From the NCBI RefSeq assembly GCF_000155895.1, contig NZ_DS995298.1, positions 300,001 through 332,000 on the forward strand: DNA of 32,000 bases, written 5' to 3'. This DNA comes from Candidatus Pelagibacter sp. HTCC7211. GTDB lineage: Bacteria > Pseudomonadota > Alphaproteobacteria > Pelagibacterales > Pelagibacteraceae. A program made the translations under genes and the position numbers. Under the pieces are notes generated by a model. That model was not told the DNA's origin. It saw nothing but the letters and a program-made list of their open reading frames with translations, and searched no databases. Below, one piece after another: positions 7,492-25,901 of this stretch (its first letter is position 1; the number at the start of each line of letters is the position of its first letter).

Positions 7492-7568
7492 CCGCAAAAA
7501 CATTAACTTTGCGGTGTCTTTGGAAACAAAGAGATCGACACTAGTCAGCGAGGCTTCGCCCACTAGTG
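7492..7568 (+). ncRNA. Candidate structured RNA element: three consecutive hairpins in the 161-bp dapF/ffh spacer. Family unknown, strand tentative.
   Basis: Hairpin A: ccgcaaa (7492-7498) pairs with tttgcgg (7508-7514). Hairpin B: tctttg (7517-7522) pairs with caaaga (7527-7532) around a GAAA tetraloop. Hairpin C: cactagt (7539-7545) pairs with actagtg (7562-7568), enclosing gcga-GGCT-tcgc (7548-7559). G+C here is about 50%, far above the surroundings. The GNRA-type loop exists only on the plus strand. Confidence 0.35.
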
Positions 7569-7592
7569 CGATTACTGCTGTGCGTAATAAAT

Positions 7593-8951
7593 ATGTTTGA
7601 AAATTTAACAAATAAATTCGAAGAAATTTTTTCTTCTTTAAAAAAGGCTCCTTCACTTAATGAGGCACAAGTAGATGAGGGTTTGAGAAGTATTAGACAG
7701 GCTTTGTTGGAGGCCGATGTTACTCTTGAGGTGGCTAAAGAATTTATTGAGAATGTAAAACCAAAGGTTCTAGGACAAGAAATCATTAGATCAACTTCTC
7801 CTGGAGATATGGTTGTTAAAATTGTCTATGACGAGTTGGTAAATTTATTAGGTGAAACTAATAATGAAATAAACCTTAATGCGGTACCACCTGTACCTAT
7901 GATGCTTGTCGGGCTTCAAGGATCAGGAAAAACAACAACTACTGCTAAATTAGCAAAATATTTAGAAACAAATAAAAAGAAAAAAGTAATGATGGTTAGT
8001 CTTGATATTTACAGACCAGCCGCACAAGAACAGCTTAGATCACTTGGAGAACAAAATAATATTTTAACTCTTCCTATAATAGAAGGTCAACAACCAACCG
8101 ACATTTGTCAAAGAGCAATAAGTGCAGCAAATCTTAATGGAGCTGAAATAATTTTATTTGATACAGCTGGCAGAACTCAAATTGATCTACAAATGATGAG
8201 TGAAATAAAACAAATTGAAAGCGTTATAAAACCCACAGAAACGTTTTTAGTTGCTGACTCGCTAACAGGACAAGTGGCAGCAGCAGTTGCAAAAGAATTT
8301 AAAAATACAGTTAGTCTTTCTGGAATAATTTTGACTAGAGCAGATGGTGATGCAAGAGGTGGAGCAGCTGTAAGTATGAAATATGTTTCAAATGTTCCAA
8401 TAAAATTTTTAGGTATTGGAGAGAAAATAGATAATCTTGAAGTGTTTCACCCAGATAGAATAGCAAATAGAATTCTTGGAATGGGAGATATAGTGTCTCT
8501 TGTTGAAAAAGCTGCTCAAGATCTAGGTGAAGAAAACATAAAAAAAGCAGAGGAGAATTTAAAAAAAGGTCAATTTTCTATGCAAGATTATTTAACACAG
8601 CTTAGACAAATGAAAAAAATGGGTGGTATCGAGGGTATAATGTCTTTTATGCCAGGAGTTTCTAAGATGAAATCTCAAATGGACTCAGCAGGAATTGATG
8701 AAAGTATTATTACAAAAAATGAAGCTATAATTTTATCAATGACTAAAAAAGAGAGAGAGAACCCAAAAATTATAGGAGGTTCTAGAAAAAAAAGAATTGC
8801 TAATGGCTCTGGCACAGATCCAGCCACTATCAATAAATTGCTTAAGCAATTTAAAATGATGTCTGAAATGATGAAAAAGATGTCAAAAGGAAATCTGAAA
8901 GGTATGTCTGACAAAGGAATACCGCCAGAGCTATTTAACCAATTAAAATAA
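7593..8951 (+). CDS. ffh: Signal recognition particle protein Ffh (SRP54 homologue)
   Basis: It has the conserved N-terminus MFENLTNKFEEIF, the motifs GLQGSGKTTT, DTAGR and TRADGDARGG, and a Met-rich M domain (QMKKMGGIEGIMSFMPG ... MMSEMMKKM). I prefer ATG 7593 to the track's GTG at 7566, which adds nine residues unlike any Ffh N-terminus. Confidence 0.95.
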   Translation: MFENLTNKFEEIFSSLKKAPSLNEAQVDEGLRSIRQALLEADVTLEVAKEFIENVKPKVLGQEIIRSTSPGDMVVKIVYDELVNLLGETNNEINLNAVPPVPMMLVGLQGSGKTTTTAKLAKYLETNKKKKVMMVSLDIYRPAAQEQLRSLGEQNNILTLPIIEGQQPTDICQRAISAANLNGAEIILFDTAGRTQIDLQMMSEIKQIESVIKPTETFLVADSLTGQVAAAVAKEFKNTVSLSGIILTRADGDARGGAAVSMKYVSNVPIKFLGIGEKIDNLEVFHPDRIANRILGMGDIVSLVEKAAQDLGEENIKKAEENLKKGQFSMQDYLTQLRQMKKMGGIEGIMSFMPGVSKMKSQMDSAGIDESIITKNEAIILSMTKKERENPKIIGGSRKKRIANGSGTDPATINKLLKQFKMMSEMMKKMSKGNLKGMSDKGIPPELFNQLK

Positions 8952-9484: not shown

Positions 9485-10171
9485 ATGTGGCAAGCTCAAG
9501 TATTTACACTTTACCCAGAAGTTTTTCCTGGACCTTTATCAAAAGGACTTTATGGAAAAGCTTTATCTAAAAAATTGTGGAACTTGAATATTGTAAACAT
9601 TAGAGACGCAGCTGAGGATAAACATAAAACGGTTGATGATACTCCTTACGGCGGTGGTTCTGGTATGCTTTTAAAACCTGATGTCTTAGCAAAATCACTA
9701 GATCAAAATGAAATTAAAGGTGGAAGAATAATTTATTTATCACCAAGAGGTAAAAAGTTTGATCAAAATTATGCTCGAGAATTGTCTGATGAAAAATCAA
9801 TATCTCTAATTTGTGGGCATTTTGAGGGAGTTGATGAAAGAGTGCTTGCTACTAGAAATATTGAAGAGATAAGTATTGGAGATTATGTTTTGTCAGGCGG
9901 TGAAACAGCTGCATTTGTTGTAATAGATAGTGTACTTAGACTTTTGCCTGGCATTTTGGGTAATGAAAATTCTAAGGTTGATGAAAGTTTTGAAAACGGG
10001 TTATTAGAGTATCCACAGTACACAAAACCTCAAATTTGGGAGGAAAAAGCTGTGCCAGAGGTCCTATTATCAGGTGATCACAGCAAAATTAAAGACTGGC
10101 GTTTATCTCAATCTGAGGCTATAACACGCGTCCGAAGACCAGATTTATGGGAAAAATATAAGAAGAATTAA
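9485..10171 (+). CDS. trmD: tRNA (guanine37-N1)-methyltransferase
   Basis: 228 aa with TrmD motifs: [44 protein letters not shown]. Confidence 0.95.
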
Positions 10172-10707: not shown

Positions 10708-12111
10708 ATGTCCACTACTCTTTACGATAAAATTTGGAATGATCACTTAGTAGATCAACAAGATGATGGAACAGCATTACTTTTTGTTGATAGGCATTTA
10801 GTGCATGAAGTAACTAGTCCACAAGCTTTTGAAGGTTTAAGAAATACAAACAGAAAAGTAAGAAGACCTAATTTAACTTTAGCTGTAGCTGATCACAATG
10901 TACCCACAACAAATAGAACAAAAGGAATAGCTGATGAAGAGTCAAAAATACAAGTAGATACTTTAGAGGCTAACTGTAAAGAATTTGGTATTCAACTTTT
11001 TGGAATGGATGATAAAAGGCAAGGGATAGTACATATCATAGGACCTGAGCAAGGTTTCACACAACCAGGAACAGTGATTGTTTGTGGAGACAGTCATACA
11101 GCAACACATGGTGCTTTTGGTTCTTTAGCATTCGGTATTGGTACATCTGAGGTTGAACATGTTTTAGCTACACAAACATTAGTTCAAAAAAAAGCAAAAA
11201 ATTTTAGAATAAATGTTAATGGTCAATTACCTCTTGGAGTTACATCCAAAGACGTAATTCTTCAAATTATTGGTAAAATAGGAACAGCCGGAGGAACAGG
11301 TTCTGTAATAGAATATTCAGGTGATTTAATAAGGTCTTTAAGTGTTGAACAAAGAATGACAATTTGCAATATGACAATTGAAGGTGGTGCAAGGGCAGGG
11401 TTAATAGCACCTGATGAAAAGATATTTGATTATTTAAAAGGAAAACCAATGTCACCAAAAGGAGATAATTGGGAAAAGGCTGTTGGCTATTGGAATACTC
11501 TTAAAACTGACACTGATGCAAGCTTTGATCAAGAAATAAACTTAAACGCCAATGAAATTTTACCAATGATTACTTGGGGAACTTCTCCTCAAGATGTGAT
11601 TACAATCGATGGTAAGGTTCCTAATCCACAGAGCGAAAACGACGAAGATAAAAAAAATTCTATCGAGAGAGCTTTAAAATATATGGGTTTAAAACCTGAT
11701 ATGGCAGCTAAAGATATTAAAATTGATAAAGTATTTATAGGAAGTTGTACAAATGGAAGAATAGAAGACCTAAGAGAAGCTGCTAAAATTTTAAAAGATA
11801 AAAAAATATCATCACATGTAAATGCAATGGTTGTTCCAGGTTCTGGATTAGTTAAAGAACAAGCAGAACAAGAAGGTTTAGATAAAATATTTTTAGCCTC
11901 TGGATTTGAGTGGAGAGAGCCTGGATGCTCAATGTGTTTAGCAATGAACGCCGACAAATTGAAACCTGAGGAAAGATGTGCTTCTACTTCAAATAGAAAT
12001 TTTGAAGGTAGACAAGGTAGAGGCGGAAGAACTCATCTAGTAAGTCCTGGAATGGCGGCTGCCGCAGCAATTTCTGGAAGCTTAGACGATGTTAGAAAGT
12101 ATCAAAATTAA
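10708..12111 (+). CDS. leuC: 3-isopropylmalate dehydratase large subunit
   Basis: 467 aa of the aconitase family with Fe-S ligand contexts VCGDSHT, GSCTNGR and GCSMCLAMN. The N-terminus [15 protein letters not shown] is typical of LeuC. Confidence 0.95.
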
Positions 12112-12717
12112 ATGAAAAAATTTAATTCATTAAAAGGCATACCTGCGTATTTACCAATAGTAAATATCGATACAGATATGATTATTCCAAAACAATTTTT
12201 AAAAACTATCAAAAGAACGGGGCTTGGAAAAAATTTATTTTTTGAAATGAGATATGACAACCAAGGTAAAGAAATTAGTGATTTTGTATTAAACCAAAGT
12301 CCATACAATGATTCAAAAATCTTAATTACTGGTAAAAATTTTGGATGTGGTTCTTCAAGAGAACATGCGCCATGGGCATTATTAGATTTTGGAATAACTT
12401 GTGTTATTAGTTCTAGCTACGCAGACATTTTTTTTAGCAATTGTTTTAAAAATGGAATTTTACCTATTATTTTAGAGGAAGAAAAAATTAAAGAATTGTC
12501 AGAATACGCAAATAGAAAAGAAGAAATTTCTGTTGATTTAAATGAAGAAAAAATAGTTTATGGAAATAATGAAATTAAATTTCAAGTAGATCCATTTAAA
12601 AAAAAATGTTTATTAGAAGGTCTTGATGATATTGCTCTTTCTTTAAAGAAATCAGATAAAATTGAAAATTTTGAATCAAACTTAAAAAATAAGAAACCAT
12701 GGATTTTTAATGATTAA
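12112..12717 (+). CDS. leuD: 3-isopropylmalate dehydratase small subunit
   Basis: 201 aa with the [17 protein letters not shown] motif. Its start abuts the leuC stop (TAAATG). Confidence 0.95.
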
Positions 12718-13816
12718 AGTAAGAAAAAGAAAAATACTTTTATTGCCAGGTGACGGAATAGGTCCTGAGGTTATTAATGAAGTTAAAAAAATCATTAATT
12801 GGTTTAATGATAAAAAATCTTTAGATTTTGAAATAGATGAGGCTCTTGTTGGCGGTTGTTCGTATGACAAACATGGAACGCCGATTACTGATGAGGTTTT
12901 TTATAAAGCTCTTGAAAGTGAAGTGGTAATGCTAGGAGCTGTTGGAGGCCCCAAATGGGATGATATTGAATTTTCAAAAAAACCTGAAAGAGCACTATTA
13001 AAGCTTAGAAAAGAATTAAAATTATTCGCAAATTTAAGACCAGCAATATGTTTTGAACAATTAGTTGATGCATCAACTCTCAAACCTGAAATTGTATCAG
13101 GCTTAGATATAATGATAGTTAGAGAGCTGACAGGTGGAATTTATTTTGGTGAACCAAGGGGAATTAAACCAATAGACAATGGTGAAAGAAAAGGAATAAA
13201 CACACATACTTATACGACTAGTGAGATTACTAGAGTAGCTAGAATTGCTTTTGATTTAGCAAAAAAAAGATCTAATAAAGTAACCTCATGTGAAAAATCA
13301 AATGTAATGGAAGCAGGTCAACTTTGGAAAGAAGAAGTCCAAGAACTTCACGATAAAGAATATAAAGATGTAGAGCTAAGTCATATGCTTGCAGATAATT
13401 GCGCAATGCAGCTTTTAAGAAATCCAAAACAATTTGATGTTATTGTAACTGATAATTTGTTTGGTGACATGCTTTCAGATCAAGCTTCAATGCTAACGGG
13501 ATCTTTAGGGCTGTTACCTTCTGCATCTTTAGGTGCAAAAAACAAGGACGGAGAAATGAGAGCGATGTATGAGCCTATTCATGGTTCAGCACCAGATATT
13601 GCCGGTAAAGGAATTGCTAATCCAATTGCATCAATATTAAGTTTTGCAATGGCACTAAGATACTCATTAGACCTTGATAACGAAGCTGATAGTCTGGAAA
13701 AAGCCGTTCAAGCAGTACTTAATGAAGGTCTAAGAACTAAAGATATTTTGTCAGAAGGAATGAAAGAGACATCTACATCAGCGATGGGTGATGCGATAAT
13801 TTCAAAATTGCAATAA
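12710..13816 (+). CDS. leuB: 3-isopropylmalate dehydrogenase
   Basis: 368 aa with [11 protein letters not shown], the NLFGDMLSD signature and [18 protein letters not shown]. It overlaps leuD by 8 nt. Confidence 0.95.
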
Positions 13817-13829
13817 TTCTAGAATTATT
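13812..13829. repeat. Perfect 18-bp palindrome AATAATTCTAGAATTATT spanning the leuB stop codon, 14 nt upstream of the dmdC ATG. Candidate operator or hairpin.
   Basis: All nine base pairs were checked by hand (13812 pairs with 13829, through to 13820 with 13821). It lies in one of the few spacers longer than 20 nt in the window. The palindrome is certain; a regulatory function is inferred. Confidence 0.5.
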
Positions 13830-13842
13830 CTAAGGTCCCGGA

Positions 13843-15606
13843 ATGCCAAATTATACTGCTCCAGTAGAAGACATGTTATTTCTCTATGAAAAATTAAGAG
13901 ATAACAAGAACTATAATGAACTGGAAAAATACAACGAAGTTAGTCTAGATTTAGTTAAAGATATTTTAGAGGAAGCAGCTAAAATAAATCAAAATCTTAT
14001 ATTACCATTAGCAGTAGCTGGAGATGAAAATCCAGCTAAATTAGAAAATGGAGTTGTTAGAACTCCTCCAGGATACAAAGAGGCATATAACAAATATATT
14101 GAAGATGGATGGGTATCTTTATCATGTGATCCTAAATATGGTGGACAAGGCATGCCTAAAACAGTTAGCGCATTTTTTGATGAAATGTTGTCTGCAACTT
14201 CTCTTTCTTTTAAACTTTATAGTGAACTAACTATAGGTGCTTACAATTGTATTTTAAGACATGCAGCCGAAGACATGAAAGATAAATATCTTCCAAAAAT
14301 GGTTGAGGGTAAATGGAGCGGAACAATGTGTTTAACGGAACCAGTCTGTGGGACAGATTTAGGAATGTTAAAAACAAAAGCAGTAGAACAATCTGATGGT
14401 ACTTATAAGATTAGTGGACAAAAAATATTTATTACTTCAGGTGATCAAGATCTTACCGAAAATATTATTCATTTAGTTATTGCTAGAGCTTCGGACTCAC
14501 CCCCTGGAACTAAGGGGATTAGTTTGTTTCTTGTTCCTAAATTTATAGTAAATGAAGATGGCACTATTGGACCTAGAAATGGGGTAAGCACTGGATCTGT
14601 GGAGCACAAAATGGGAATTAAAGGTTCTGCAACATGCGTTTTAAATTTTGATGAAGCTGTGGGCTATATGATTGGACCTAAAAATAAGGGTCTAAGCCAA
14701 ATGTTTACTATGATGAACTTAGAAAGAATAATAGTTGGAGTTCAAGGATTAGGAATTTCAGAAATAGCATATCAAAATTCACTTAGTTATGCCAAAGAAA
14801 GAAAACAAGGAAAGACAAATAATTCAAAATCAACTAATGGTGCAGACTTTATTATTGAGCATGCAGATATAAGAAGATCTCTATTAAATATGAAATCTAT
14901 CATTGAAGGTGAAAGAGCTTTATGTTTTTGGCTCTCTCAGCAAACAGAAGTCAGCCTTAATCATCCAGATGAAAAAATTAAACAAGAAGCTTCTGATTAT
15001 GTTTCGTTAATGACACCAGTAGTGAAATCTTTATTTACTGACCTAGCGACTGAAATTACAAGTGATGCGATGCAAATTCATGGTGGATATGGTTTTACAA
15101 AAGATCAAGGTATTGAACAACTATATCGTGATAATAGAATTACTCCAATTTATGAGGGAACAAATTCAGTTCAAGCAGCGGATTTGGTATTTAGAAAACT
15201 ATCAAATAAAAACGGTAACATAATTGGTAATTTTTTAAATATGATTAAGATGGAGTGTGAAAGTAAAAATGAAAAGGTCAAAATCTTTACAAAAGAATTA
15301 AACTATTATTTAGATATTTTATCAAAATTTACTGATTGGATTAATGATAAGAGCAAAGAAGAAAAAGATGATGTTAGTGCAGCAGCAAATGATTATCTAA
15401 AAACGCTTGGTTTTGTTTCATTAGCTTATTCTTGGATTAAAATCTTAGAAGTCAGTTTTAATGATTATGATACAAACAAAGATTTCTATGAAGATAAAAT
15501 CAATACTGCAAAATTCTTTTTTGATAAGGTTTTGCCCAGAGCTGAACATCACTATAAAACTGCAATATCTGGAAGTTCAAATATAATGAATTTCAAATTT
15601 AATTAG
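13843..15606 (+). CDS. dmdC: Long-form acyl-CoA dehydrogenase; probable 3-methylmercaptopropionyl-CoA dehydrogenase
   Basis: 587 aa of the ACAD family (MCLTEPVCGTDLG; QIHGGYGFTKDQGIEQLYRDNRITPIYEGTN with the catalytic Glu context), plus an extra C-terminal domain of about 140 aa. The dmdC assignment rests on its position in a cluster with an acyl-CoA ligase and a GcvT-fold enzyme, as reported for Pelagibacter. Confidence 0.8.
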   Translation: MPNYTAPVEDMLFLYEKLRDNKNYNELEKYNEVSLDLVKDILEEAAKINQNLILPLAVAGDENPAKLENGVVRTPPGYKEAYNKYIEDGWVSLSCDPKYGGQGMPKTVSAFFDEMLSATSLSFKLYSELTIGAYNCILRHAAEDMKDKYLPKMVEGKWSGTMCLTEPVCGTDLGMLKTKAVEQSDGTYKISGQKIFITSGDQDLTENIIHLVIARASDSPPGTKGISLFLVPKFIVNEDGTIGPRNGVSTGSVEHKMGIKGSATCVLNFDEAVGYMIGPKNKGLSQMFTMMNLERIIVGVQGLGISEIAYQNSLSYAKERKQGKTNNSKSTNGADFIIEHADIRRSLLNMKSIIEGERALCFWLSQQTEVSLNHPDEKIKQEASDYVSLMTPVVKSLFTDLATEITSDAMQIHGGYGFTKDQGIEQLYRDNRITPIYEGTNSVQAADLVFRKLSNKNGNIIGNFLNMIKMECESKNEKVKIFTKELNYYLDILSKFTDWINDKSKEEKDDVSAAANDYLKTLGFVSLAYSWIKILEVSFNDYDTNKDFYEDKINTAKFFFDKVLPRAEHHYKTAISGSSNIMNFKFN

Positions 15607-15608
15607 TT

Positions 15609-17225
15609 ATGAGTAGTTACGATACAAACTTAGATAAAAATTCTGCAAATTATGTGCCTCTTACTCCTTTAACATTTTTAGAGAGAGCTAAAGATGTTTA
15701 TCCTAATTATGAGGCTATAGTTTATGAAGATAGAAGTTATACTTGGAGCGAAGTTTGTAAAAGAGCCACTAAGTTTGCTAGTGCCTTGGAAAAAATTGGC
15801 ATTAAAAAAGGAGATACTGTTTCTTTTTTAGCTTTTAATACGCCAGAAATTTTTGAAGCACATTACTCAGTTCCGATGACTGGTGGTGTATTGAATACAA
15901 TAAATATTAGATTAGACGCTAATACAATTGCTTATATTTTAGAACATAGTGAGGCAAAAGTTTTAGTCGTAGATAGACAACTGCATGTGGAAGTAAAAAA
16001 AGCATTAAAGATTTTAGACAAAAAAATTATTGTAATAGATATAAATGATAAACATGCGGATCAGTCTAAATTAGAAAAAATAGGTGATTTAGAGTATGAA
16101 AGTTTTTTGAACACTGGTGATGAAAATTATCTTTATAAAATGCCAGATGATGAATGGCAGGCAATATCGTTAAGTTATACTTCAGGAACTACAGGAAATC
16201 CTAAAGGAGTTGTTTATCATCATAGGGGCTCGTATTTAATGTCAACAGGTAGTGCAGTTGCTTGGAATATGCCCAACAGATTAAATTTTCTAACTATAGT
16301 TCCAATGTTTCATTGTAATGGTTGGTGTTATCCTTGGACAATTGCAATGCTAAATGGAAGAACTATTTGTTTAAGGAATATAGACGTTAAAAAAATTTTT
16401 GAATTAATCGACAAATATAACGTTACGCATTTTGGTGGAGCACCGATCGTACTAAATATGATTACGGGCGCACCTGAGAGTGATAGAAAAAAATTAAAAC
16501 AAAAAGTTCATGTTTTGACCGCTGGGGCTCCTCCACCAAGTATAATTTTTAAAAAAATGAAAGATCTTGGATTTGAAGTAATGCATGTTTATGGTTTAAC
16601 AGAAACTTATGGTCATGTTACTCAATGCGCATGGAATGAAGAGTGGAATGCATATGATGAGGATAAACAAAATGAAATTAAGGCAAGACAAGGCGTGAGA
16701 TATCCAAATACAGAAGGTGTAACAGTTATGGATCCTGAAACTATGAAAGAAGTTCCAAGTGATGGCAAAACCATCGGTGAAATTATGATAAGAGGAAACG
16801 TTGTTATGAAAGGATATTTTAAGGACAAAGAAGCTACTGACAAAGCGATGGCTGGTGGCTGGTTTCACTCAGGAGACCTAGCAGTTATGCATCCAGATGG
16901 GTACGTTAAAATACAAGATAGGTCAAAAGATATAATTATTTCAGGAGGTGAAAATATATCTTCAATTGAGATAGAAAATACACTCTCAAAACACCCATCC
17001 GTTTCTATTGCAGCAGTAGTTGCTAAACCTGATGAAAAATGGGGAGAAGTACCATGTGCTTTTATTGAAATGGTCACTGATAAGCCTACTACCGAAAAAG
17101 AATTAATTGATTTTTGTAAAGAAACTTTGGCTGGTTTCAAAGTACCTAAACAAGTAATTTTTTGTGAGTTACCAAAGACATCCACAGGAAAAATTCAAAA
17201 ATTTGAATTAAGAAAACAATTCTAG
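15609..17225 (+). CDS. dmdB: AMP-forming acyl-CoA ligase; probable 3-methylmercaptopropionate-CoA ligase
   Basis: 538 aa with the AMP-binding signature LSYTSGTTGNPKGV, plus GWFHSGDLAV and the C-terminal PKTSTGKIQK. It starts 2 nt after the dehydrogenase stop. Substrate is assigned from context. Confidence 0.8.
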   Translation: MSSYDTNLDKNSANYVPLTPLTFLERAKDVYPNYEAIVYEDRSYTWSEVCKRATKFASALEKIGIKKGDTVSFLAFNTPEIFEAHYSVPMTGGVLNTINIRLDANTIAYILEHSEAKVLVVDRQLHVEVKKALKILDKKIIVIDINDKHADQSKLEKIGDLEYESFLNTGDENYLYKMPDDEWQAISLSYTSGTTGNPKGVVYHHRGSYLMSTGSAVAWNMPNRLNFLTIVPMFHCNGWCYPWTIAMLNGRTICLRNIDVKKIFELIDKYNVTHFGGAPIVLNMITGAPESDRKKLKQKVHVLTAGAPPPSIIFKKMKDLGFEVMHVYGLTETYGHVTQCAWNEEWNAYDEDKQNEIKARQGVRYPNTEGVTVMDPETMKEVPSDGKTIGEIMIRGNVVMKGYFKDKEATDKAMAGGWFHSGDLAVMHPDGYVKIQDRSKDIIISGGENISSIEIENTLSKHPSVSIAAVVAKPDEKWGEVPCAFIEMVTDKPTTEKELIDFCKETLAGFKVPKQVIFCELPKTSTGKIQKFELRKQF

Positions 17226-17233
17226 GTAATTAC

Positions 17234-18010
17234 TTGATATTTCAGATAGAAAATAAAAATGTTCATGCATCAGATGCTGGGCAAGGTATTGATAGTAAAA
17301 AGGATACTATAATATTTCTTCATGGAAGTGGTCTTTCGCATATTGTGTGGTCTTTAGCTGAACAATTTTTTTCAAATAAAAATTTTAATGTTTTATCACT
17401 TGATTTACCTGGTCATGGTAATTCAGACGGCCCTTGTTTAGATACAATTGAAAAAATTGCTGATTGGATAGAAAATGTACTTAAAAAACTAGATTTAAAA
17501 AAAGTAATACTTATTGGCCACTCCCAAGGATGTTTAGAAATATTAGAATATGCTCATAAATACAAAAATAGGCTTAAAAAGTTAGTTTTTATCGGAGGGT
17601 CATATCGAATGCCAGTTAATCAAGATCTTATAGATCTTGCAAAAAATGGTGATTCAGAATCTGTTAAACTAATGATGAAATGGGGATTTAAAGACTCTAA
17701 AAAATTCATAGGAGGTAATCCAGTCGAAAAAATAATTCAGTCTCCTAGAGACATAAGTGAAATTTTAGCAGTCGATCTTGTTGCATGCAATAATTATTCA
17801 AATGGTTCAATTGCAGCAAAGGAAATAGATTGTCCCTCAATGTTAGTCTTTGGATCTGATGATAAAATGGTTAATTTTGAGGTAGGAAAAAAATTTGCGA
17901 ATTTAATTAATAATTCAATTACCTGTGTGATAGATGATTGTGGTCATATGATAATGATTGAAAAAGCTTTTGAAATGAGAGAGAAGATCCTAGAATTTTT
18001 AAAAAAATGA
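17234..18010 (+). CDS. Alpha/beta-fold hydrolase of unknown function embedded in the dmd cluster
   Basis: 258 aa with the oxyanion motif FLHGSG, the nucleophile elbow GHSQG, an acid candidate in FGSDDKMV and His in [13 protein letters not shown] start is the only in-frame start upstream of the HGSG strand. Its stop overlaps the next gene's start (ATGA, 18007-18010). Confidence 0.85.
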
Positions 18011-19116
18011 AAAAATTTCCAATAGCTAAATCTCGAAGACTTAGAAGTACTCCTTATACAGATAGAATAGAAAGACAAGGGGTAAGCTCTTACACTGTAT
18101 ACAATCATATGTTACTGCCTGCTTCATTTGTTTCGGTAGAGGCAGATTATCATCATTTAAAAGAATTTGTTCAAGTTTGGGATGTTGCCGCTGAAAGGCA
18201 AGTTGAGATATCAGGAAAAGACTCCGCTCAGTTAGTTCAATTGATGACATGTAGAGATCTTTCAAAATCAAAGGTTGGTAAATGTTACTATGCTCCCATA
18301 ATTGATGGACAAGGAAATTTAGTTAATGATCCTATTATTAACAAATTAGCTGAAAATAGATGGTGGTTATCTATTGCTGACTCTGATGTTATTTTTTTTG
18401 CAAAAGGACTTGCTTCAGGTAATAAATTTGATGTTGATATAAAAGAACCTGATGTAAATATTTTAGCTGTTCAAGGTCCTCTTTCAGATAAATTAATGTC
18501 AAAAGTTTTTGGAGAAAAAATATCTCAGTTAAAATTTTTTAATTTTGATTATTTTGAATTTAAAGGTATGAAACATTTTATCGCTCGATCAGGATGGTCA
18601 AAGCAAGGTGGTTTTGAAATTTATGTTGAAAATGCTGAAGCAGGAAAAGAGCTTTATGATTATTTGTTTGAAGCTGGTTTGGAATTTAATGTAAAACCAG
18701 GATGTCCAAATCTGATTGAAAGGATTGAAGGAGCACTTCTTTCATATGGAAATGATTTTGATAATAGAGACAATCCTCTTGAAGCAAATTTTGAAAAATA
18801 CACTAATTTAGATAGTGAAGTAGAATTTTTGGGAAAAGATAGATTAAAAAAAATTAGAGATAAAGGTGTCAAAAGAAAACTAATGGGAGTTAAAATTGAT
18901 CATGATCAAATTGATATGTATTGTGAAAAAACTCTTTTTGATGACAATAATAATATCATTGGCTTTGTTAGATCGGCCACTTATTCTCCAACATTTAAAA
19001 AAGTTATTGGCATAGCAATGATCAATAAACCTTATTGGAATTCAAAGAATTCATTTAAAATAGAGATAAATGAAAAAATTCATTTAGGAAATATTTGCGA
19101 TTTACCCTTCATTTAG
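18007..19116 (+). CDS. dmdA: GcvT-fold aminomethyltransferase-family protein; probable dimethylsulfoniopropionate (DMSP) demethylase
   Basis: 369 aa resembling the glycine-cleavage T-protein family ([22 protein letters not shown]..., [23 protein letters not shown]). No gcvH or gcvP is nearby. It is coupled to the acyl-CoA ligase/dehydrogenase genes, and its length and N-terminus match my recollection of Pelagibacter DmdA. Confidence 0.85.
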
Positions 19117-19135
19117 TATAAGTTTTAACATAATC

Positions 19136-20143
19136 ATGAATATAGCGATCGTTGGTGCCACTGGTAATGTGGGTAGAAAAATACTTGAAGTTCTTGAAAA
19201 GAAAGAGCTTTCAATTGATAATTTATACTTGTTAGCATCTTCTAGAAGCGCGGGATCAAAGATAAATTTTCTTGGTGATGAACATGAAGTTTTAAATCTT
19301 GAAACTTTTGATTTTTCTAGAGCAAAAATAACTTTTTTTGCGGCGGGAGGAAAAATTTCAGAAAAATTTGCTGAAAAAGCTGCCAAACATTCTTTAGTAA
19401 TAGATAATTCCAGTTTTTATAGAATGGATCCAGATGTTCCTTTAATTGTACCTCAAGTTAATTCGGATCATTTAAATAATATAAAAAAAAATATTATTGC
19501 AAACCCAAACTGTTCAACTGCACAATTAGTAATTGCGCTCAAACCGTTACATGACTTATTTACAATTAAAAGGATAGTTGTGTCGACTTATCAATCAGTT
19601 TCAGGTGGTGGTAAAGCACAAATGGATGAACTTATTGATCAGACAAAATTAATTTTAGAAAAAAAAAAAGTTGAGTCTAAAAACTTTACAAAGCAAATTG
19701 CATTTAATGCAATTCCCCAAATTGATGTTTTTGCAGACGATGGTTATACAAAAGAAGAGCTTAAAATGACTAATGAGATAAAAAAAATTTTAGGCAGCAA
19801 AATAGAGTTAACAGCTACCTGCGTTAGACTTCCTGTTTTAGTTTCTCATTCAGAGTCAGTTAATATTGAATTTGAAAAGCTTTTTACTTTAGAAAAAGTG
19901 AGAGAGGCTCTTGATAACTTTAAGGGTTGTAGAGTAGTAGATGAAAGATCAGACGGAGGCTATATAACTCCATTAGAAGCCGAAGGAAGAGATGAAACTT
20001 TTATTTCAAGAATAAGAGAAGATAAAACTGTAAATAATGGATTAAATATGTGGATTGTTTCAGACAATCTTTTAAGAGGCGCAGCTTTAAATGCAGTTGA
20101 GATAGCAGAAAATTTAATTAAAAATAACTTCTATGGAAAATAA
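19136..20143 (+). CDS. asd: Aspartate-semialdehyde dehydrogenase
   Basis: 335 aa with the NAD(P) fold MNIAIVGATGNVGRK, the active-site Cys context IANPNCSTAQLV, plus QSVSGGG and SDNLLRGAALNAV. Confidence 0.95.
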   Translation: MNIAIVGATGNVGRKILEVLEKKELSIDNLYLLASSRSAGSKINFLGDEHEVLNLETFDFSRAKITFFAAGGKISEKFAEKAAKHSLVIDNSSFYRMDPDVPLIVPQVNSDHLNNIKKNIIANPNCSTAQLVIALKPLHDLFTIKRIVVSTYQSVSGGGKAQMDELIDQTKLILEKKKVESKNFTKQIAFNAIPQIDVFADDGYTKEELKMTNEIKKILGSKIELTATCVRLPVLVSHSESVNIEFEKLFTLEKVREALDNFKGCRVVDERSDGGYITPLEAEGRDETFISRIREDKTVNNGLNMWIVSDNLLRGAALNAVEIAENLIKNNFYGK

Positions 20144-20516
20144 AAGCCCATTATCTCCTCATATACAAATATATAGATGGCACATTTCATCTTTAGTTTC
20201 TATCTCTCATAGAATAACTGGTATAATCAATATTATAGCAATAACTTTAATTTGTATCTGGGCATCAATGTTAATTTTAGGAGATTCAAGTTACAGTACT
20301 ATAAATTTATTTTTTAATTCTTTATTAGGAAAGTTTTTTGCTATTGGTTTAGCTTGGTCATTTAGTTTTCAAATTCTAAGTGAAATAAGACATTTAATAA
20401 TGGACATGGGTTATGGATTTGAATTAAAAACAACTCGAATAACAGGAATAGCTGTTATTTTTGGCTCTGTTGCCTTGACTATTTTAATTTATTTAATAGG
20501 TAAAAATTTTATTTAA
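20133..20516 (+). CDS. sdhC: Succinate dehydrogenase cytochrome b556 subunit
   Basis: 127 aa with three TM helices and the N-terminal SPLSPHIQIYRW motif including a His heme ligand context. It overlaps asd by 11 nt. Confidence 0.9.
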   Translation: MENKSPLSPHIQIYRWHISSLVSISHRITGIINIIAITLICIWASMLILGDSSYSTINLFFNSLLGKFFAIGLAWSFSFQILSEIRHLIMDMGYGFELKTTRITGIAVIFGSVALTILIYLIGKNFI

Positions 20517-20843
20517 ATGAATTTAGCTACAAAAAAATGGATTTTCTTAAAAATCTCATCAATCATTTTGTTACCTTTAATGATTTGGTTTATTTTGAAT
20601 TTTATAGCAATTTATAATCAAAATTATTTAGAAGTTTTAAAATTTTTTACAAATTCAACTAGTAAATTTTTATTTAGCTTATTTATAATTTTTGCATATT
20701 TTTTTTCGGCACTTAGTATAAGTGAGGTATTTGAAGACTATATTGGTGATGATAAAATCAAAAATGTCGCAAACAGACTATTATTTTTATCTGCTATAGT
20801 TATCCCATTATTAACAATTATATTTTTATTTAATCTAAATTAA
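20517..20843 (+). CDS. sdhD: Succinate dehydrogenase hydrophobic membrane anchor subunit
   Basis: 108-aa three-TM protein lying directly between sdhC and sdhA (TAAATG and TAATG junctions). Confidence 0.85.
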
Positions 20844-22618
20844 TGAGTACTTATAAAATTATAGATCACGAATATGACGTTGTAGTATTAGGTGCTGGAG
20901 GATCAGGCCTAAGGGCTGCTGTTGGCTTGAGTGAGGCAGGTTTAAAAACTGCGTGTATCTCAAAAGTTTTTCCAACAAGAAGCCATACATCTGCAGCTCA
21001 AGGAGGTATTTCAGCTGCCCTTGGAAACATGGGAGAAGATGATTGGCGATGGCACATGTATGATACCGTAAAAGGTGCAGACTGGTTAGGTGATCAAGAT
21101 AGCATTGAGTATTTATGTAAAGAAGCACCGCAAGCAGTAATTGAGTTAGAAAAATATGGTGTGCCTTTTAGTCGAACAGAGGAAGGAAAGATTTATCAAA
21201 GACCATTTGGAGGAATGACAAAAAATTATGGTAATGGGATAGTTCAAAGAACTTGTGCTGCCGCTGATAGAACAGGTCATGCAATTCTACATACTCTTTA
21301 TGGACAAGCTTTAAAACACAATACAGAGTTTTTTATAGAATATTTTGCATTGGATTTATTAATGAAAGATGGTGAGTGCAAAGGATTAATAGCTTGGAAT
21401 TTAAATGATGGAACAATTCATAGATTTAGGGCGCATACAGTAATTATTGCTACTGGTGGGTATGGAAAAGTTTATTACTCAGCAACTTCTGCACATACGT
21501 GCACAGGTGATGGTAATGCTATGGTTTTAAGAGCTGGACTTCCATTACAAGATATGGAGTTTGTACAATTTCATCCAACAGGAATATATGGTCACGGTAC
21601 TTTAATTACTGAAGGGGCTAGAGGCGAAGGAGGTTACCTTACAAATTCAAAAGGTGAGAGGTTCATGGAAAGATATGCCCCAAGTGCAAAAGATCTAGCG
21701 TCAAGAGATGTGGTAAGTAGATCAATGTCAATTGAAATCAATGAGGGAAGAGGAGTTGGTAAAGATCAAGATCATGTTCATTTGAACTTAAGTCATTTGG
21801 ATAAAGAAATTATTGAAAGTAGATTGCCAGGAATTACTGATGCTGCAAGATTATTTGCAAATGTGGATGTTACTAAAGAGCCAATTCCAGTAGTACCTAC
21901 TGTTCACTACAATATGGGTGGTATTCCAACAAATTATAAAGGAGAAGTTATGACAGTAAATGGTTCTGAAAAAACTGTTCCTGGATTGATGGCAATTGGA
22001 GAAGCTGCGTGTGTTTCCGTTCACGGAGCCAATAGATTAGGATCTAATTCTTTAATTGACTTAGTTGTATTTGGAAGAGCAGCAGCTAAAAGGGCCGCAG
22101 AATTAATTAAACCAGGAACTCCCCATGAAGAAATTGGAGAAACTGAAACTCAAAAATGTTTGGATAGGTTTGATAAACTTAGAAATGCAAATGGTGAAAA
22201 TAGTACAGCAGATCTAAGACTTGCTATGCAAAAAACAATGCAATCAAAATGTGCAGTTTTTAGAACTGAAAAAAATCTTAAAGAAGGTGTTGATGAAATC
22301 AGAAAAACTTATGATGGAATGGACTCTATTTCAGTTAAAGATAGATCGTTAGTATTTAACACAGATTTAGTAGAAACTTTAGAGTTTGACAATTTAATTA
22401 GACAAGCTGTAGCTACAGTTGATTCTGCCTACCACAGAAAAGAAAGTAGAGGAGCTCATGCAAGAGATGATTATCCAAAAAGAGATGATGAAAAATTTAT
22501 GCAACATACACTAGCTTGGTGTGATGGCAAGAATACAAAAATAAGTTATAGAGAAGTACACAAATCTACGTTAACTAATGAAGTACAATACTTTCCACCA
22601 CAAGAAAGAGTGTATTAA
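20843..22618 (+). CDS. sdhA: Succinate dehydrogenase flavoprotein subunit
   Basis: 591 aa with the FAD fold [16 protein letters not shown], the covalent-FAD His context [11 protein letters not shown], plus HPTG and ESRGAHAR. Confidence 0.97.

Positions 22619-23436: not shown

Positions 23437-25901
<2,465 letters not shown>

Follow-up and report, generated by a model that had tools for sequence, protein, structure and literature searches.

A probable SAR11-type dimethylsulfoniopropionate demethylation cluster in Candidatus Pelagibacter sp. HTCC7211 and the repeated loss of its hydrolase gene

The 32,000-nucleotide (nt) stretch of Candidatus Pelagibacter sp. HTCC7211 analyzed here (contig NZ_DS995298.1, positions 300,001 to 332,000; hereafter the window) contains, at positions 13843-19116, four adjacent genes that very probably represent the SAR11 version of the gene cluster for demethylation of dimethylsulfoniopropionate (DMSP), a reading to which we assign a probability of about 90%. 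DMSP is an algal sulfur compound, and its demethylation by SAR11 is among the main routes that carry marine sulfur to methanethiol and biomass rather than to the climate-active gas dimethyl sulfide, which gives recognition of the cluster ecological meaning. The arrangement of the four genes is itself not new: the literature on SAR11 has shown it since 2011, so that recognizing the cluster adds nothing to what was known. New here is the behavior of its third gene, which encodes a predicted hydrolase. This gene is under purifying selection yet has been deleted at least four times independently. A second SAR11 clade retains it together with dmdB and dmdC, next to FadB-like and crotonase genes and even in loci that lack dmdA. 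The four genes of the window are:

13843-15606, plus strand: assigned as dmdC, FadE-type long-form acyl-coenzyme A (CoA) dehydrogenase of 587 amino acids (aa); Pfam Acyl-CoA_dh_N/M/1 and Acyl-CoA_dh_C
15609-17225, plus strand: assigned as dmdB, AMP-forming acyl-CoA ligase of 538 aa; Pfam AMP-binding and AMP-binding_C
17234-18010, plus strand: predicted α/β-fold serine hydrolase of 258 aa with a TTG start; Pfam Abhydrolase_1/6
18007-19116, plus strand: dmdA, predicted tetrahydrofolate-dependent DMSP demethylase of 369 aa; Pfam GCV_T and GCV_T_C, NCBIfam NF009133

An earlier note on this DNA had described four same-strand genes of these lengths and had read them as a DMSP demethylation cluster in the order dmdC-dmdB-hydrolase-dmdA. 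The open reading frames are exactly so, with 2 nt between dmdC and dmdB, 8 nt between dmdB and the hydrolase gene and a 4-nt overlap between the hydrolase gene and dmdA. Pfam agrees with the domain classes given there (acyl-CoA dehydrogenase, AMP ligase, α/β hydrolase and GcvT fold), and neither gcvH nor gcvP was found in the gene map of the window, as the note had said. The cluster reading is borne out as well, because the same order occurs beside a DmdA identical to that of P. ubique HTCC1062 and has been published for SAR11 Ia (PMC3160333).

Judged by its sequence, the 369-aa protein is DmdA and can be assigned as such without genomic context. It passes the NCBIfam equivalog model for DMSP demethylase (NF009133) with 553.7 bits against a cutoff of 410, whereas the GcvT models reach 173, 157 and 112 bits, each under its own cutoff. 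Among proteins of known structure, P. ubique DmdA (3TFH) matches it with 606 bits over residues 1-369 (69.9% global identity), compared with 122 bits for the best GcvT structure. These scores place it with DmdA rather than with the GcvT or sarcosine/dimethylglycine enzymes that the earlier note had considered. That note had also taken all substrates to be assigned from context, which is too cautious for DmdA. Tetrahydrofolate-dependent DMSP demethylation by the HTCC1062 orthologue is on record in literature cited by PMC5395565. SAR11 also has a DmdA-like paralogue, SAR11_1265, which adjoins metF (PMC3160333); the window gene is the orthologue of SAR11_0246, because it takes the place of dmdA next to the genes for ligase and dehydrogenase and does not adjoin metF.

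The sequence of PDB entry 3TFH is that of AAZ21068.1, the DmdA of P. ubique HTCC1062, and one of the loci compared here (L071; L numbers designate loci) encodes exactly this protein. This HTCC1062-type locus is collinear with the window over 18 genes from trmD to sucD, including the succession dehydrogenase (587 aa), ligase (542 aa), hydrolase (258 aa) and DmdA (369 aa). Identity between window and L071 is 92.1% for leuB, 82.3% for DmdC, 78.2% for DmdB (538 versus 542 aa), 69.4% for the hydrolase, 69.9% for DmdA, 78.2% for asd, 91.9% for sdhA and 93.4% for mmsA. Evolution is thus uneven at 18007-20143: DmdA and the hydrolase are about 70% identical to their HTCC1062-type copies, whereas leuB, sdhA and mmsA stand at 92-93%. 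Across loci L001-L063, asd falls into two groups by its identity to the window copy (62-70% versus 73-95%), while sdhA is steady at 88-99%. Such uneven values point to divergent alleles, or to recombination, in the dmdA-asd area.

The wider survey covered one genome per bacterial species, scanned with the 369-aa protein, and returned 63 loci; together with others such as L067-L071, 71 loci were considered overall. All but one of the 63 scan loci (62) belong to Pelagibacterales, the remaining one to an uncultured alphaproteobacterium. The closest is that of the single-amplified genome AG-447-M05, with protein identities of 94-100% across ten genes. Wherever the contig shows it, the Pelagibacterales loci of the scan keep the order leuB-dmdC-dmdB-[hydrolase]-dmdA-asd. 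Gene order in the cluster is conserved in loci of about 60 Pelagibacterales species, and the block dmdC-dmdB-hydrolase(-dmdA) is found in two different genomic neighborhoods, since the second SAR11 clade has other flanks. This conservation of gene order exceeds chance, and because the cluster survives relocation in the second clade, genome compactness does not account for the linkage. The locus of the uncultured alphaproteobacterium, which is not SAR11 (L059, 2983-8111), has a dmdA of 51% identity followed directly by a dmdB-like ligase gene (53%), a gene of the isopropylmalate dehydrogenase family and a thiolase gene; neither the hydrolase gene nor dmdC is present in this locus.

The tightness of the junctions, unlike the gene order, carries no such information. 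The window has a G+C content of about 30% and is packed very compactly: the 26 junctions between genes on the same strand measure 1.5 nt in the median, and 18 are no longer than 10 nt. Short junctions are therefore the norm here and are not evidence for an operon, and the compact packing that the earlier note had emphasized is no signal specific to the cluster. A scan of positions 12000-21000 found 43 promoter-like and 3 terminator-like sites, compared with 43.0 and 3.3 in shuffled sequence, so that the sequence itself gives no indication of transcription units; the four genes may nevertheless be co-transcribed. Rfam detected no family near the cluster and only the ffh motif in the window as a whole.

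The 538-aa ligase passes the NCBIfam model of acyl-CoA synthetase PRK08162 with 863.8 bits (cutoff 677). We compared it with the residues of Ruegeria lacuscaerulensis DmdB (6IHK) that mutagenesis has implicated in binding of methylmercaptopropionate (MMPA), ATP or CoA (PMC6850173). Of these, H231, W235, R432, K434, D435, G440, G441, E442, E474, K523 and K526 are kept, and six pocket residues are replaced; catalytic Lys523 corresponds to K528 in the window ligase, and the gate PMFH-x-N-x-W, which contains H231 and W235, is conserved. The ligase is moreover the positional orthologue, at 78.2% identity, of the one beside the HTCC1062-identical DmdA. Its position and the conserved catalytic residues support its assignment as a SAR11-type MMPA-CoA ligase. 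The DmdB of P. ubique was reportedly characterized in detail by Bullock in 2014. It has been entered as functionally ratified in a secondary source that cites Reisch 2011 (PMC7039863, Table S3). The accession tabled there for P. ubique DmdB, WP_011281571.1, directly follows that of DmdA, WP_011281570; the gene that adjoins dmdA is the hydrolase gene.

The 587-aa dehydrogenase matches Roseovarius nubinhibens DmdC (6IJC) over its full length with 483 bits and has the long-form architecture of four Pfam domains, including Acyl-CoA_dh_C. The catalytic pair Y434-E435 of 6IJC corresponds to Y437-E438. Of the other residues mutagenized in the R. nubinhibens enzyme, M161, T170, F195, K223, K281, F287 and R448 are kept, and S197T, H280N and R284S are changed. 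By homology and conserved context, we infer that the protein is an MMPA-CoA dehydrogenase; the assignment leans on the context, because sequence cannot separate this family from FadE.

The hydrolase gene (17234-18010) is intact and under purifying selection, and its product is predicted to be a serine hydrolase. It has the oxyanion HG motif, the nucleophile elbow G-x-S-x-G and a Ser-Asp-His triad on the canonical fold. All 46 orthologues share the motif residues HGSG30-33, G95-H-S97-Q-G99, D210 and H238 without exception; in a 54-sequence alignment (A1) they are all invariant save G95, which is at least 90% conserved. The ratio of nonsynonymous to synonymous substitution rates (dN/dS) is 0.08-0.18, compared with 0.02-0.07 for DmdB and DmdC. 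Invariant catalytic motifs together with a low dN/dS indicate a live enzyme gene.

None of the NCBIfam equivalog models passed for the hydrolase. BioH was rejected (TIGR01738, 55.5 bits against a cutoff of 206.95), as were a C-C hydrolase of the BphD/MhpC type (TIGR03343, 62 bits against 462) and PcaD (TIGR02427, 63.8 bits against 255.85); MenH fell likewise far under its cutoff. Orthologues are publicly annotated as 'pimeloyl-ACP methyl ester carboxylesterase', and on these scores the names BioH and MhpC are generic fold labels without functional assignment. The AlphaFold model (mean predicted local distance difference test score, pLDDT, 88.5) has a template-modeling (TM) score of 0.88 to the enol-lactonase 2XUA. 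Foldseek against the PDB returned a flat list of enol-lactonase, aryl and feruloyl esterases, perhydrolases and C-C hydrolases at 16-25% identity; since these matches are about equal and of low identity, they do not allow a substrate to be inferred. An identity with DmdD or AcuH was rejected, because both Pfam and the AlphaFold model give an α/β hydrolase and not a crotonase fold. The nearest PDB sequence match, AF-Est2 (5FRD), carries CoA in its active site; it lends no support to a thioesterase role, because the AF-Est2 paper found no thioesterase activity.

In the first SAR11 clade (clade 1), 59 loci allowed scoring of the slot that separates dmdB from dmdA, and in 13 of these the hydrolase gene is missing or a remnant. 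Five deletion architectures occur, with gaps between dmdB and dmdA of 13, 29, 79, 96 and 198 nt. The gene is cleanly gone in L006-L008, L010, L011, L031, L035, L051, L053-L055 and L063, where four architectures leave 13-96 nt. In L002, which is otherwise 96-99% identical to the window, a pseudogene remains at 9811-9997: an internal deletion of about 580 nt has removed the catalytic serine and fused the first ~9 codons out of frame to the last ~53. Mapped onto a 57-taxon tree of dmdC, dmdB and dmdA, the ancestral state is presence of the gene, which must then have been lost independently at least four times, L002 included. Since it was lost repeatedly and independently, the hydrolase gene is an accessory, dispensable member of the cluster. 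Its product is not an established pathway enzyme, although the earlier note had listed the gene with those of the pathway.

A second, deeply separated SAR11 clade is represented by L057 (2300-11110), L058 and L067-L070. Identity to the window is about 55% for the hydrolase and about 60% for DmdA. Glycosyltransferase, integrase and SbmA-like genes neighbor the module in this clade, and leuB and asd do not flank it. The order is a FadB-like gene (3HCDH and ECH domains), dmdC, dmdB, optionally an OsmC-like gene and one for a 269-aa crotonase, then the hydrolase gene and dmdA; L068 and L070 keep the hydrolase gene with dmdC and dmdB although no dmdA is adjacent. The crotonase in the slot of L057 is of the ECHDC3/PRK08139 type. 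A DmdD- or AcuH-like identity was considered for it and set aside: no DmdD structure was among its matches at E ≤ 1e-20, and other enoyl-CoA hydratases scored about 95 bits. By their context, the FadB-like gene and the crotonase gene of this clade are candidates for the SAR11 methylthioacryloyl-CoA hydratase. The window has neither a FadB-like nor a crotonase gene, and among the 63 scan loci none but those of the second clade has one at a distance of up to 10 kb from dmdA.

Based on these observations, we propose that DmdA would transfer a methyl group from DMSP to tetrahydrofolate, giving MMPA, which DmdB would activate with ATP and CoA to MMPA-CoA. The FadE-type flavoenzyme DmdC would then oxidize MMPA-CoA to methylthioacryloyl-CoA, with Glu438 as the presumed catalytic base, and the hydration that releases methanethiol would be carried out by an enzyme encoded outside the window. 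The hydrolase would be an accessory of the acyl-CoA part, traveling with dmdB and dmdC without being required by the pathway. It might be an accessory (thio)esterase that finishes or unblocks the MMPA-CoA branch in SAR11, a suggestion that we consider rather doubtful. Such an enzyme could free CoA from malonate-semialdehyde-CoA, the intermediate left after hydration and removal of the thiol, or from stalled MMPA-CoA or methylthioacryloyl-CoA, acting with a generic crotonase or with a FadB-like hydratase of the kind encoded in the cluster of other SAR11 clades. If this were true, the hydrolase would be part of the last, methanethiol-forming step in the ocean's most abundant DMSP demethylator.

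Several points weigh against reading the cluster as one for DMSP demethylation. The window encodes no hydratase for the last step, and its gene map contains no gene of the ECH (crotonase) family; DmdD orthologues are also reported to be absent from P. ubique (PMC5069961). The ligase fails the curated model for 3-(methylthio)propionyl-CoA ligase (NF005426) with 339.4 bits against a cutoff of 822, and because it misses this cutoff it falls, by sequence, outside the DmdB family of the Ruegeria type. It scores higher to a Thermus long-chain ligase (284 bits) than to 6IHK (261 bits), and its pocket differs from 6IHK by G302T, G303A, W326Y, P333G, K438I and W443N. As matches of the dehydrogenase, P. 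aeruginosa FadE1 (546 bits) and FadE2 (513 bits) outscore DmdC 6IJC, and no SAR11 DmdC is among the ratified enzymes of PMC7039863 Table S3. Finally, characterized DmdB and DmdC enzymes are of broad specificity (PMC5395565). An alternative is that dmdC, dmdB and the hydrolase gene form a general module for β-oxidation of short- or medium-chain fatty acids (FadE, FadD and an esterase), not dedicated to DMSP, with MMPA as only one substrate and dmdA recruited alongside. The closest solved homologues of the dehydrogenase, FadE1 and FadE2, are long- and medium-chain fatty-acyl-CoA dehydrogenases of general β-oxidation (PMC11890623), and the ligase belongs to a generic acyl-CoA synthetase subfamily publicly labeled as long-chain fatty-acid CoA ligase. 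In addition, the FadB-like gene of the second clade abuts dmdC, L068 and L070 keep the module without adjacent dmdA, and the broad specificity of DmdB and DmdC is stressed in the literature. However, dmdA adjoins the module in nearly all loci and across two neighborhoods, and no thiolase goes with it in SAR11. We regard the general β-oxidation module as unlikely, though it is the alternative that most deserves attention; it overlaps with the demethylation cluster, and the two are not mutually exclusive. That the linkage to dmdA is conserved in so streamlined a genome argues for MMPA as a main substrate.

Another alternative is that the 369-aa protein is a glycine-cleavage T protein or another aminomethyltransferase, of the sarcosine/dimethylglycine type or the DmdA-like SAR11 paralogue. 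The protein does carry GCV_T and GCV_T_C domains, and SAR11 genomes do contain that paralogue, but the sub-cutoff scores of 157-173 bits with GcvT models compared with 553.7 for the DmdA equivalog, the wide margin between the best GcvT structure and DmdA, and a position beside dmdB and dmdC that matches SAR11_0246 rather than the neighbor of metF leave this idea with practically no probability. It is also very unlikely that the four genes adjoin through incidental packing of a streamlined genome, free of functional coupling. Junctions of at most 10 nt are indeed common throughout the window, the cluster is surrounded on its own strand by a long series of unrelated housekeeping genes (leuCDB, asd, sdhCDAB), and the scan detected no promoter or terminator boundaries around it. 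Against this stand the intact dmdC-dmdB-hydrolase(-dmdA) block of the second clade, where other neighbors replace leuB and asd, and the similar dmdA-acuH-dmdB-dmdC cluster of the unrelated SAR92 gammaproteobacteria (PMC10746254).

Outside the cluster, the 5′ part of the window encodes a TRAP (tripartite ATP-independent periplasmic) transporter, an amidase, ftsY and dapF (on the minus strand), ffh, rpsP, trmD and rplS. The rest comprises leuC, leuD, leuB, the four-gene cluster, asd, sdhCDAB, a CoA-acylating (methyl)malonate-semialdehyde dehydrogenase, mdh, sucC, sucD and sucA. Three further features were recorded:

7524-7577, plus strand: Rfam RF01793 'ffh sRNA' (small RNA), 54.4 bits (gathering score 35), immediately upstream of ffh (7566-8951), whose start it overlaps
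23437-24930, plus strand: CoA-acylating methylmalonate/malonate-semialdehyde dehydrogenase (TIGR01722, 708.7 bits), 4.3 kb downstream of dmdA past asd-sdhCDAB
24876-25901, plus strand: mdh open reading frame, overlapping the preceding gene by 55 nt

The dehydrogenase at 23437-24930, 93% identical to the copy in the HTCC1062-type locus, could use malonate semialdehyde from the last step of MMPA catabolism. In mdh, the malate dehydrogenase family match begins only at residue 21, so that the true start probably lies about 60 nt downstream.

Two practical points follow. Public annotation names the SAR11 DmdB orthologues 'long-chain-fatty-acid--CoA ligase' or 'acyl-CoA synthetase', and because of the former label and the failure of the curated MMPA-CoA ligase model, label-based surveys will under-call SAR11 dmdB. 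For the methanethiol-releasing step of SAR11, it is reasonable to look in the variable slot between dmdB and dmdA. This slot holds the hydrolase gene, which is sometimes deleted, and in the second clade also the OsmC-like and crotonase genes, with the FadB-like gene upstream of dmdC.

The closest known system is that of HTCC1062 itself, which oxidizes DMSP methyl groups and for which Sun et al. (2011) drew the SAR11 Ia cluster as dmdA-mhpC-fadD-mmgC, with mhpC as the hydrolase gene (PMC3160333); a 2023 mBio paper on SAR92 draws the HTCC1062 arrangement as well (PMC10746254), and P. ubique proteomes contain DmdA, DmdB and DmdC proteins (PMC5069961). The genes SAR11_0246-0249 (dmdA, 'mhpC' α/β hydrolase, dmdB/'fadD' and dmdC/'mmgC') are the same four in the same order and on one strand as in the window. 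The flanks also agree, with leuCDB upstream and asd-sdhCDAB-aldehyde dehydrogenase-mdh-sucCD downstream; the comparison draws on L071 and on the map in PMC3160333. The two loci differ in sequence only: the cluster proteins are 69.4-82.3% identical, compared with about 92% for neighboring housekeeping genes, and the hydrolase gene, which starts with TTG 8 nt past dmdB in the window, overlaps dmdB by 4 nt in the HTCC1062-type locus.

The SAR92 cluster dmdA-acuH-dmdB-dmdC shares with the window the relative order of dmdA, dmdB and dmdC and one extra gene between dmdA and dmdB. In SAR92, however, this slot is filled by acuH, a crotonase for the methanethiol-releasing last step, whereas the window has an α/β hydrolase of unrelated fold, and the SAR92 DmdA is only 35-39% identical to that of SAR11. 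With the roseobacter enzymes (SPO1913 DmdA, R. lacuscaerulensis 6IHK DmdB, R. nubinhibens 6IJC DmdC and DmdD), the window has the reaction scheme and the superfamilies in common, and its ligase and dehydrogenase retain the catalytic Lys of DmdB and Glu of DmdC, respectively. The ligase of roseobacters falls into the NF005426/PRK07008 subfamily, outside of which the window ligase lies. Judging by locus tags, the dmd genes of R. pomeroyi are dispersed (PMC5395565), whereas those of the window are clustered; the order that the earlier note had described as established for marine alphaproteobacteria is therefore typical of SAR11 and not of the group in general. Roseobacters have DmdD, in contrast to the reports on P. 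ubique and to the crotonase-free window. P. aeruginosa FadE1 and FadE2 (8PNG, 8PNS, 8R1E and 8PU5), the closest solved relatives of the window dehydrogenase, share its four-domain long form but, unlike it, show no linkage to a DMSP demethylase gene.

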